From contig CM102285.1 in assembly GCA_046563655.1 (NCBI GenBank), positions 13,640,001 to 13,704,000 of the forward strand: 64,000 nucleotides of DNA, written 5' to 3'. Source of the stretch: Yuukianura sp. NJ FZ-2021. Lineage: Eukaryota. Below, one piece after another: positions 13,532-20,009 of the stretch; the first letter of the stretch is position 1, and each line of letters starts with the position of its first letter. The position numbers and the translations under genes were made by a program. The notes under the pieces are model-generated. The model did no database searches. It was not told the origin of the DNA and saw only the letters and a program-made list of their open reading frames with translations.

Positions 13532-13931
13532 TTGACCTTTCGGGGTTTTCGTGAGCTTTTTTGGATGCTCAAGAGTACTGGAACTGGATGCTGTTTTTTA
13601 AAAAAAAGAGACAAATTAAATTAGGCTGGTCGTGCAGGTCCCGGACCGGAATCGGATCCCAAATCAAAATGTAAACACGACTTGTTATTTAGTAATTGGA
13701 TTACTCAATTGATTAATCCCTTCATAACTCCACCGATTCTTATAATGTAAAATCCGCTTACTACAGTACTACTTACCGCCAGCGCCACTCGTTTTGTTTC
13801 GATTAACTGTTGGACCAATCGAACGTTCGTCAAAAATAAATACAAAATCAAAACTTCACTTCTGAAAGTGGTTGGAAAGTAAGGATCAGCTGACTTCTCA
13901 CATGAGTGAATGACTCATTCATACGGTTTTA

Positions 13932-16900
13932 GGGATGCCCCCTATAATGCCGCAGGACCTCGAATTCATCACCGCAACGCCTCGAATTCAAGCCGCAGCA
14001 TCCCGAATTCATTCTGGTCTGGAGCAAAGCCCCAGCAAGTATGCAAAGCATTCTCGTCAAAGTGAAAAAAAACCTAACTTGATCAATTTGAATTTGGATT
14101 ATGAGAACAGTTGTTGATTTTTATTTTAATGCTAATGGCAACCAAATGTCGTCACACTTGAAAAATGTTTCCAAACAAACAAAATGCAAACTGTAAAAAC
14201 CTTCTCATTGCCAGCGGATTTTCAAGCGAGTTCCATCTTCATAGATTTTGTTCGTTGCTTCTCTGCTGTCCCGCTCGGATCAGACACAAAACATGGCGAC
14301 TGACAAGATCCAGATTAGTTTGAAAGAGCTCAAGGAACTGATGGAGCTGCGAGGAGAAGATGGCCAGGCTAAGTTGGCGGAAATGGGCGGAGTCAAGAAA
14401 ATTTGTGAACGACTGGACGTGTCTCCTGTCAACGGTACGACCATCTCCCCAACTCCTCGTTTTAAATTCTAGTCACTTCCCGCCAGTTTAAATTTTTTGT
14501 TTTCAGGACTTCCAAATGACCCGGTGATTCTTGCCAGACGGCGCCAAATCTTTGGTTCGAACGTCATTCCACCGAAGCCTCCGAAGTCTTTCCTGGCGTT
14601 GATGTGGGAGGCTGTACAAGATGTGACTCTGATCATTCTGCAAGTGGCTGCCGTCGTGTCACTTGCGTTGTGGCTCATGACGCAGTACATCCAGTTTGAT
14701 GACATGGAGAAAGCGGAGGACGACTCTCACGGTTGGATTGACAGTTGTGCCATCCTTGTGTCCGTGGTGGTCGTCGTACTTGTCACTGCTTTCAACGACT
14801 ACACCAAGGAACGCCAGTTCCGAAGTCTCCAGTCTCGCATCGAAGGTGAGCACAACTTTGCTGTCATCAGAGGCGGAGTAGTCCAGCAGATCCCTGTGTG
14901 CGACATTGTCACTGGCGACATTTGCCAAGTAGGTGGAATTCAACTTTTGGTTTGAAGTGAATAAGTTGATAACTAAAAAACAACTTATTTTCAGGTCAAG
15001 TACGGAGATCTTCTGCCAGCGGATGGTTTGCTTATTCAGAGCAATGATCTGAAGATTGACGAGTCCTCACTCACGGGAGAGTCTGATCATGTCAAGAAGT
15101 CCGAAACGGCAGACTCCATGATCTTGTCCGGTACGTCAATGAATCTCCGAATGTGAAGAATTTTTAAATATCGAATCCTATTTCGGTGTGTAGGTACTCA
15201 TGTCATGGAGGGCAGTGGGAAGATGGTGGTGACTGCCGTGGGAATCAACTCGCAGTCGGGAATCATCTTTGCATTGCTGGGTGCCACAGAAGAAGAAGGA
15301 GACGAAGAGCCAGCACCCAAACCGGTACCGGAGAAACCGAAACAAAGCAAGGCCGGCGCACCAGTGATACCGTCAAATGTCGTACTAGTGGAAAGGACGC
15401 ACAGTCGCCTCAGCACTGCTCAACCCACGCATAAGTTCGTCTCGCCGGAAGAAGTAGAAAAAGATGTCGAGGAGGCTAAAAAAGCCAAAACGTCCAAACC
15501 AAAAGAAAAATCGGTTTTGCAGACCAAACTGACCAAGTTGGCTGTTCAAATCGGATATGGCGGTATAATTTCTTTTTCATTAATGGCGGTTTACTTAGAT
15601 TAGGTTAGATTGAGCTAATATGAAGTTATTTTGTCACAGGGACGGTGATTGCTGCCCTCACTGTGATCATCATGTTCCTCAAGTTCTGTGTCACAAAGTA
15701 TGCCGTGGACGGGGAACCTTGGGAAATGCGACATGCGCAGAAGTTCACCATGTTCATCATCACCGGTATCACCGTTCTGGTCGTAGCTGTTCCAGAAGGC
15801 CTTCCGCTCGCTGTTACACTTTCTCTTGCTTATTCCGTCAAGGTATTACAATTTTTTCTTAACCAATTCGAGTTAAACTTGAATTTCGGAATTTGATTTT
15901 GATTTTTTTGTTTTGGTTTTTAGAAAATGATGAAAGACAACAATTTGGTTCGACACTTGGATGCTTGTGAGACGATGGGAAATGCTACAGCGATTTGCTC
16001 AGACAAGACAGGCACATTGACCACCAACAGAATGACTGTAGTGCAGTCGTACATGTTCGGGAAAATGCAAACAGAAGCACCCAAGTTCAGCGATTTGCCG
16101 CCGGGCATGGGCGATCTCCTGGTACATGCCATGACAGTCAACTCTGCATACACGTCCACCATTTTGGTAAAGATTCAAAAAATTCCCGCCGAAATCTGGA
16201 TTATACTAATTTCTTCTCGAATAGCCTCCAGAGAACCCGGGGGAACTCCCAAAGCAAGTGGGCAACAAGACGGAGTGTGCGCTTTTGGGATTTGTAAGGG
16301 ACTTGGGCCAGGACGTGTCCAAAATCAGAGAAAAAATTCCGGAAGAGTCTTTCGTTCGAGTGTACACGTTCAACTCCGTCCGGAAGTCAATGAGTACCGT
16401 AATCAACCGACCTGGCGGAGGATATCGACTGTTTACCAAGGGAGCTTCTGAAATGATCATGAAAAAGTAAAAACAAGTTTCAATTTTTGTCCAAAGTTAA
16501 AATTCTAAACTCTGAAAACTTTTTTTCAGATGTGGGTTCATGCTTGGCCCTAATGGAGTTGTGCAGCCCTTCACGAAAGAAATGCAGCAAAGCCTCGTGA
16601 CTGACGTGATTGAACCAATGGCATGCAACGGTCTCCGCACCATCTCCATTGCTTACAAAGACTTTGTGCCTGGCAGTGCAGCTCCTAACGAGGTCAGTCT
16701 CAAGTCTTGAGCTTTTAAAAAATAGAAGCGGGAAGTTTCAAATCAAAAGTTTTGTCAAAATGTCCATTCTGGTCTCTCAGGTTCATGCGGACACTGAGCC
16801 AAAGTGGGACAATGAAGACCTCATTGTCACCAACTTGACATGCATTTGTCTCGTCGGAATCGAAGACCCTGTCCGTCCAGAGGTGACCTTTAAGTACTTC

Positions 16901-19334: not shown

Positions 19335-20009
19335 ACGGTTTTAACTTTGTTTGCTTTTCTGTCATCTCATCACTCTCACTCTCACTCATCATCATCAGTC
19401 TGGTTTGGATTCCAAATTAAATTCCAAGGATCAAATTAACAGCAACAAAAAGGTGAGGGGAGGACGAGGACACTGACAACTTGAAAACAACTACCCCAGT
19501 TTTTAATTAAATTATTCACTGAAACTTGGCTCTCACTGACTGCTAAATGATTTTTTCATTGTTATTTTCCAGTTGCAGGCAGCTAATAGGTTTCACTCAA
19601 CTCAACATCTGGTTGGCCACATTGCTTTTTCTGAGAGATTGACAGCATTTCCATTGGCCATTATCTCAAAACCACAGTCTCGTTAAAGGCAGGTACGACT
19701 TCAATCGGCAATTGGACTGGACAACCACAACAGTAGAAGACCATTAACGGTTAGTTTAAGAAAAGATAAATGAATTAGTAGTTGAATTGGATATGTCATC
19801 AAATCCCTAAAGTCGGCAGTGAGACGAGATGGAGCCGTCGGCTATGGCTGTAACCTAACATCTCATCTTGATCTTTTCATACGAGTTTGCATTTAATGTA
19901 CCTAATAAAGCTTTATAGCTGACAGCAATTTATTAATTGTTAATTAATTGCGAATCCTACCTGTTGCTTTCAGACGACGAAAACTGACCGTACGGTTCGA
20001 TAGCTCATC

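Follow-up and report, generated by a model that had tools for sequence, protein, structure and literature searches.

A whole PMCA calcium-pump gene within a putative transposon-type insertion in a springtail

Background

Is a calcium-pump gene that lies in the upstream region common to two divergent neighbours an ordinary resident of that place, or was it brought there whole by a DNA transposon? The question is raised by a stretch of 64,000 nt from Yuukianura sp. NJ FZ-2021 (GenBank assembly GCA_046563655.1, contig CM102285.1, positions 13,640,001 to 13,704,000 of the forward strand; hereafter "the window", numbered from its first letter), in which a gene for a PMCA (P-type 2B Ca2+-ATPase) lies between genes for archease and lifeguard and is enclosed by short inverted arms and a 9-nt direct repeat. 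The host, to judge from its sequences, is a springtail, and thus an animal. The original prediction for this locus was that a complete, spliced PMCA gene had been packaged in a Mutator-like element (MULE) of the Pack-MULE type and duplicated with its introns. In our analysis a transposon-type insertion carrying the whole PMCA gene is the best reading, and we give it about an even chance of being correct. The repeats, their register, the structure of the gene and the reality of its junctions with the flanking DNA are established, and we describe them before turning to what they may mean.

The ends of the unit

The 9-nt direct repeat ACGGTTTTA occurs just twice in the whole window, at 13923-13931 and at 19335-19343 (neither copy is assigned to a strand), and because the bases flanking the two copies differ (T and C before, G and A after) it is exactly 9 nt long. 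The span between the copies (13932-19334) comprises 5403 bp, and its two termini form inverted arms. The left arm (13932-13976, plus strand), which starts with GGG, aligns without gaps to the reverse complement of the right arm (19290-19334, minus strand), which starts with GCA, at 32 of 45 positions; the agreement is good in the inner 28 nt (24/28) and poor in the outer 17 nt (8/17). All of this reproduces exactly what had been noted before: the overall and inner identities, the length of the span and the same 9-mer abutting both ends. A repeat search likewise pairs the two ends, as an inverted repeat of 38 nt with 79% identity.

Both ends are composed of a unit of 21-22 nt, GCCGCAnnnCCTCGAATTCAT. 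Three such units stand in tandem at the left end (13949-69, 13971-91 and 13992-14012, together 13949-14012, plus strand), while the right arm holds one full unit in inverted orientation (19297-19317) and the start of a second. These four are the only matches to the unit in the window, with 0.02 expected, and the core CCTCGAATTCATCRCCGCA, sought with up to three mismatches, matches at the two ends alone, whereas none of 100 shuffled windows yielded any match. On either side the spacing from the 9-mer to the first unit is 17 nt. Self-comparison of the window revealed no part of the 5.4-kb unit repeated elsewhere in it. Integration at a staggered cut of 9 nt is marked by just such an exact direct repeat next to inverted arms, and we therefore regard the two copies of ACGGTTTTA as a putative target-site duplication (TSD), and the arms as putative terminal inverted repeats (TIRs).

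How much of this could be due to chance differs from one feature to the other. Shuffled windows contain on average 0.81 copies of ACGGTTTTA, and 19 of 100 contain at least two, so that the 9-mer by itself is without significance; the inverted core is significant. We also scored every exact 9-mer direct pair in the window with a separation of 200-20,000 nt for an inward inverted repeat in the 45 nt inside each pair. Among the 17,500 pairs the one described here ranks at the top with 32/45, the mean score being 12.1 (sd 3.2) and the next best 26.

The cargo gene

The unit is filled by a PMCA gene on the plus strand (coding region 14293-18575), for which we built a homology-guided model with predicted boundaries. 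The model has 16 exons between 14293 and 18541 (exons 1-8: 14293-14434, 14507-14928, 14995-15130, 15194-15562, 15640-15842, 15924-16166, 16225-16466 and 16530-16692; exons 9-16: 16781-16882, 16939-17223, 17323-17412, 17492-17698, 17790-17831, 17898-18054, 18112-18314 and 18390-18541), separated by 15 introns of 56-99 nt, and an open frame of 1063 codons; read-through from the last exon meets a stop at 18573-18575. For intron 10 (17224-17322) the best model has a GC donor (GCAAGT), the runner-up being a GT at 17244. Successive exons match the Pfam families Cation_ATPase_N (PF00690), E1-E2_ATPase (PF00122), Cation_ATPase (PF13246), Hydrolase (PF00702) and Cation_ATPase_C (PF00689), and the spliced model contains every catalytic motif sought, NLIMD among them, by strings which we take to be those of P-type ATPases.

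The best protein matches are arthropod PMCAs, with springtails leading (Folsomia 73%, Orchesella 73%, a fragment from a metagenome 81%), and the general search returned nothing above 81%. When exon 6 served as the query to look for a close paralog or the protein itself, the best match was 78%, to an exon of the metagenome contig L001, and therefore the species of the window is not in the protein collection searched.

The non-coding remainder of the unit amounts to ~316 nt and ~560 nt and leaves no room for a transposase. The ~316 nt that separate the left arm from the start codon (13977-14292, plus strand), presumably the promoter and the 5' untranslated region, have no similarity elsewhere in the window. 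The sole AATAAA or ATTAAA between the stop codon and the right arm is an AATAAA at 18976-18981 (plus strand). The polyA signal and the transposase-free interior of the original prediction are thus borne out, as a whole PMCA gene fills the unit. A search of 13000-20500 against Rfam with E-values up to 0.1 gave no matches.

The lost calmodulin-binding tail

The window PMCA resembles the canonical arthropod proteins (Orchesella P0003, Allacma P0006, Folsomia P0002 and that of L001) with 76-80% identity over ~1000 residues, in the possession of all P-type motifs and in introns placed mostly as in L001. It differs from them at the C-terminus: homology to full-length relatives ends at about residue 1048 of 1212, and no calmodulin-binding autoinhibitory domain (PF12424) is encoded in frame nearby. 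The calmodulin-binding segment ..GQILWIRGLTRLQTQ is carried by all seven tail sequences used as queries. What the window has in its place is a frameshifted ghost of the motif at 18681-18749 (plus strand), out of frame and containing a stop codon, which gives weak tblastn matches against ADSDKRRSAGQILWIRGLTRLQT (E 0.8-28 with five of the seven tail queries, none being listed for the other two) and lies in the place, on the strand and in the order expected. The canonical tail is kept in 5/5 full-length springtail sequences (P0003, P0004, P0006, P0007 and L001). The description of the gene as "apparently intact" consequently holds for its 16 exons, 1063 open codons and complete set of catalytic motifs, and fails for the C-terminal domain: as far as can be judged from the sequence, the pump core is intact and the canonical regulatory tail is gone.

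A different tail may be encoded instead. A possible last intron at 18542-18593 (GT..AG) sits at the position where L001 has an intron ahead of its tail exon, and would be followed by an alternative basic tail exon (plus strand; predicted region 18542-18771, open reading frame 18547-18771, stop at 18769-18771) that belongs to no Pfam family. According to this prediction, splicing of the intron would give a protein with a different basic tail ending at 18771, and without splicing the protein would stop at 18575. In truncated PMCAs, loss of the tail is expected to free the pump from calmodulin control, and by analogy the window PMCA would be expected to escape this control as well.

Junctions in independent sequencing runs

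The stretch was found in five DNA runs from two studies, no RNA run being listed among them, and for four of these (X1, X2, X3 and X5) contigs were compared with the window. Both junctions of the unit are bridged by contigs from runs of the two studies (X5: 13818-14352 and 18597-19680; X2: 13194-13972 and 19129-21296; X1: 19003-19493), and therefore they are no assembly artefact. Run X5 comes from the other study, bears another organism label and diverges from the window by ~3-4%; as it spans both junctions, the insertion is common to the samples and not very recent. Immediately to the right of the unit, in a CT/GAG-rich stretch, 5 letters at 19362 are absent in all four compared runs, and there are further indels relative to the window near 19362, 19407 and 19465, so that the individual or haplotype of the window differs here from the sequenced samples.

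A second PMCA-like locus in the same genome is hinted at by the runs as well. A number of contigs follow the window along an exon and diverge from it at or near exon starts, at 15191/2 in X1 and X5 and at 15918 in X2. One loose end after 16067 reads ..YMQTPKFSD in our own translation, with the two small indels by which L001 differs from the window copy. An X1 contig that joins 16067 to 16221 has a depth of 192, near that of most other listed X1 contigs (135-237). In the bin 15804-16120 the summed depth is 2-2.5 times that of neighbouring bins, which is no more than a hint, as depth here means contig depth and is no measure of copy number. It is this indirect read evidence of a second PMCA-like sequence that suggests that the gene may be a duplicate.

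The loose ends of X3, together with a joint that goes back, bear GATC and look like ligation chimeras, and we disregarded them. One 24-letter loose-end string has no match in the window, and by eye intron 3 of L001 offers no match to the loose end at 15191. At the left end of the unit, one X2 contig fits the window from 14016 on, after 222 unlike letters, and another fits up to 14057 and is then followed by 117 unlike letters. These ~42 nt (14016-14057), just inside the third subterminal unit, may occur elsewhere in the X2 genome with other flanks, as a family member or a structural variant.

Relationship to other springtail PMCAs

The closest PMCA is that of L001 (9343 bp), with 80.5% amino acid identity over 1001 aligned columns, compared with 76.5% for Orchesella. 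The springtail sequences make up one clade (support 100/100) of a tree with 22 PMCAs, and within this clade the window PMCA is the sister of L001 (100/100), on an end branch of 0.34 as against 0.21 for L001 (1.6 times longer). Judged from the sequences, this placement fits an ortholog in another species and a lineage-specific paralog alike. The exons of the two genes are colinear except for two introns, one present only in L001 (near 15781) and one only in the window (17832-17897). Since the gene has kept its introns, most of them colinear with the introns of L001, any duplication took place via DNA and not via RNA. The earlier proposal of an intron-retaining duplication in an animal is thus supported as to the introns and the springtail host; transposition itself we infer.

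The PMCA of L001 is canonical, with its tail present. We scanned L001 for the arm motif and found none, and the sequences that flank its gene, 3.15 kb on the upstream and 1.39 kb on the downstream side, show no similarity to the 64-kb window. It does contain a perfect 18-nt inverted pair (446-463/8246-8263), extendable to ~24 nt with one indel and located 2.7 kb upstream and ~0.3 kb downstream of the gene. We considered this pair as TIRs and rejected it, as there is no TSD beside it and no likeness to the window arms.

The insertion site and its surroundings

On the left of the unit lies a single-exon gene for archease on the minus strand (12980-13531; PF01951, E 2.3e-44), and on the right, on the plus strand, a gene of the lifeguard/Bax-inhibitor (TMBIM) family (20010-21400; PF01027, E 1.5e-7) with its first ATG at 20010. 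The insertion point is ~400 nt from the archease ATG and ~667 nt from the lifeguard ATG, and in silico excision of the unit leaves a divergent promoter region of ~1 kb common to both genes.

Elsewhere the window contains a C2H2 zinc-finger gene, a SYO1-like gene, an ABCA transporter gene and two arrestin-domain genes; the last two (25444-27437 and 27677-29590, minus strand), with ~67-81% DNA identity, represent a local tandem duplication. A dispersed repeat of ~260 bp is present at 34113-34372 (minus strand), 35763-35988 (plus strand) and 52045-52287 (plus strand) in copies that are 76-79% identical, and probably represents a family resembling miniature inverted-repeat transposable elements or short interspersed nuclear elements. 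Two of its copies, inverted and 17.8 kb apart, lie in and around the ABCA transporter gene, and its internal palindrome ATTGGTACCAAT mimics, in a naive scan, an 8-bp TSD with "TIRs" matching at 35 of 45 positions. We therefore rejected the 8-mer pair at 34278/52130 (35/45), which is part of this palindrome within the two inverted copies. A tandem array with a period of ~75 nt and 78-83% self-identity occupies 58342-58760.

A possible mechanism and the superfamily of the element

Taken together, these features suggest a non-autonomous cut-and-paste DNA transposon of 5,403 bp, or an insertion made by one, in the ~1-kb divergent promoter region of archease and lifeguard. Its cargo would be the whole PMCA gene, complete with 15 introns, a polyA signal and the ~316 nt that precede the gene. 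A transposase supplied in trans would bind the 21-22 nt units (three of them at the left end and an inverted one at the right), cut at the ends and integrate the unit at a 9-nt staggered break, whose repair would leave the two copies of ACGGTTTTA.

Among the eukaryotic DDE superfamilies described, a duplication of 9 nt fits MULE (8-10 bp) and Merlin (8-9 bp). By analogy with known elements, MULE is the best fit to a duplication of 9 bp, tandem repeats in subterminal position, a left end rich in G and a target close to genes, and the superfamily is probably MULE. MULEs have TSDs of 8-10 bp, typically 9 (PMC5225508), and are prone to insertion in or near genes (PMC6446971). Their TIRs are classically longer than 100 bp, range from 13 to 1193 bp in arthropods and have G or C in the first three positions; complete MULEs are recorded there in two springtails, one of Symphypleona and one of Poduromorpha (PMC13359780). 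The Muta families of Aedes aegypti have TSDs of 8-9 bp and subterminal tandem repeats, the latter in 10 of the 12 families with long TIRs (14 families in all), with derivatives of variable repeat number; non-autonomous derivatives have heterogeneous interiors that include fragments of host genes (PMC5225508). In Pack-MULEs full-length gene capture is called "exceptionally rare", most of them being fragment-bearing and 1-2 kb long (PMC6431247). Our searches found no literature that links Mutator-like elements with Collembola, and the literature on gene capture by Pack-MULEs is mainly on plants.

The window unit shares with the Muta derivatives and the plant Pack-MULEs a 9-bp TSD, a terminal motif with subterminal tandem repeats that vary in number between the ends, and insertion near genes; as in any Pack-type element, there is no transposase between its ends and the cargo is host-derived. 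Unlike them it has short arms (~45-80 nt) that are 71% alike and poorly matched at the tips, with no family members or autonomous partner found in the window, and, in contrast to Pack-MULEs, it carries a single complete gene of 16 exons together with the flanks of that gene, ~5.3 kb in all. The grounds for the label "Pack-MULE" are limited to TSD length, end anatomy and target site; by analogy, the unit would work like a Pack-type MULE, but we do not file it as one. The novelty that the original prediction attached to a gene-carrying MULE in an animal was overstated, since MULE derivatives with host fragments are known from Aedes aegypti (PMC5225508). The unusual part would be a complete and open 16-exon gene with its own flanks as the cargo.

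The other candidate superfamily, Merlin (IS1016/IS1595-like), has TSDs of 8-9 bp, arms that start with 5'-GG and TIRs of 24-462 bp which are sometimes imperfect (PMC8101967). The unit resembles Merlin in its 9-bp TSD and in the GG at the start of the left arm, and differs from it in the GC at the start of the right arm; moreover, neither gene capture nor subterminal-repeat anatomy appears in the portions of the Merlin descriptions available (PMC8101967).

Evidence against transposition and alternative explanations

A number of observations weigh against the insertion of a gene-carrying transposon, and against its being a MULE. The tips are normally the best-conserved portion of a TIR, and it is the outermost 17 nt of these arms that match at just 8 positions; the right arm, moreover, begins with GCA and not with GG or GGG. 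Because the left end consists of three tandem units, a shift of the right unit by one unit inward at that end gives an alignment too (30/35), and the raw rank overstates the argument from register. With the units given, we put the probability that an exact 9-mer lies equally far (17 nt) from them on both sides at ~1e-3 to 1e-2, which is small and not astronomically so.

The two TSD copies, too, agree fully (9/9), whereas the arms share 71% of their positions and the tail ghost has decayed badly. Had the arms been identical and the tail lost at insertion, a perfect TSD would be unlikely (a few per cent, as a rough estimate), and it fits only with arms that were imperfect from the outset and a tail that was lost before insertion. 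The clustering of mismatches in the outer 17 nt argues that the arms were unequal from the start, and the loss of the calmodulin-binding tail may predate the move. This loss also means that, by its sequence, the pump is not fully "intact", as it had been called.

Evidence of a family is missing from the material searched as well. No other copies of the ends were found within the 64 kb, and none at the 31 metagenome loci searched for them. Exact matches to the 19-mer core, 26 of them single matches in unrelated bacteria and two in viral contigs, we took as due to chance (by our own arithmetic 596 Gb should contain ~9 matches, and GC-rich genomes more). No transposase family was detected in 109 translated stretches of the window, nor any IS1595-type domain; these stretches comprise 96 of the 120 open reading frames of at least 90 aa and 13 shorter ones, the other 24, overlapping, being left unscanned. 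Short arms, ill-matched tips and the want of family or transposase evidence thus all speak against a MULE. The empty site that was to be sought in other individuals did not appear in either sample examined: the insertion is present in both, and of three listed contig joints none skips the unit. The second-copy signal could instead come from a very divergent allele. The unrelated context of the PMCA in L001 is weak evidence, as that contig stems from another organism and has short flanks.

One alternative is that the PMCA gene is an ordinary resident, long settled between archease and lifeguard, the units being cis-regulatory or boundary motifs or unrelated leftovers of repeats and the 9-mer pair a coincidence. 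We regard this as possible though unlikely. It would agree with the insignificance of the 9-mer taken alone, the poor tips, the failure to find a family in the window or at the metagenome loci and the presence of the insertion in both samples, and the nesting of the gene among springtail PMCAs, with an end branch only moderately longer than that of L001, is what an ortholog could show too. It leaves to chance the equal distance of the 9-mers from the first units and the top rank among 17,500 pairs, a sole PMCA without the calmodulin-binding domain would be unusual where all five full-length springtail sequences keep it, and the reads hint at a second copy. Should the genome hold no further copies of the repeats, the locus is just an ordinary gene that two odd motifs happen to flank.

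The same TSD and arms would be expected if a small non-autonomous element had inserted first and the PMCA gene had been written between its arms later, in the course of aberrant gap repair or by template switching that followed an attempted excision, so that there was never any movement of the 5.4-kb unit as such. The models of capture reviewed in PMC6431247 include gap repair, and a capture in place would account both for the fixation of the insertion in the two samples and for the fact that no second copy of the full unit was seen. We consider it distinctly unlikely: two rare events are needed at one site, and neither 13977-14292 nor 18772-19289 contains the signature of an inner junction (microhomology or a second layer of repeats).

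Some other mobile or recombinational insertion (of Merlin type, of a superfamily not yet described, or composite, with two element ends mobilising the DNA between them) has a slim chance, as the GG at the left end is set against the GC at the right, the subterminal repeats foreign to the available Merlin descriptions (PMC8101967) and the lack of any IS1595-type or other transposase domain in the scanned stretches of the window.

Conclusions

A transposon-type insertion with a whole PMCA gene as its cargo remains the reading that we prefer; transposition, the superfamily, the duplicate status of the gene and the regulatory effect of its truncation are the inferred parts of it. One could go further and imagine a Mutator-type family of springtails able to move complete, expressed multi-exon genes, of which this copy seeded a second calcium pump devoid of the calmodulin brake, and hence a new and differently regulated transporter, in a unit that may still be mobilisable, given its perfect TSD and intact subterminal units; we find this very doubtful. 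DNA transposons that carry host sequences are known mainly in plants, and nearly always with gene fragments. If the insertion of this unit is what it seems, it would clearly exemplify the duplication of an animal gene by a transposon, with introns, promoter region and polyA signal included, and the locus would serve as a natural experiment on a PMCA that lacks the autoinhibitory tail.

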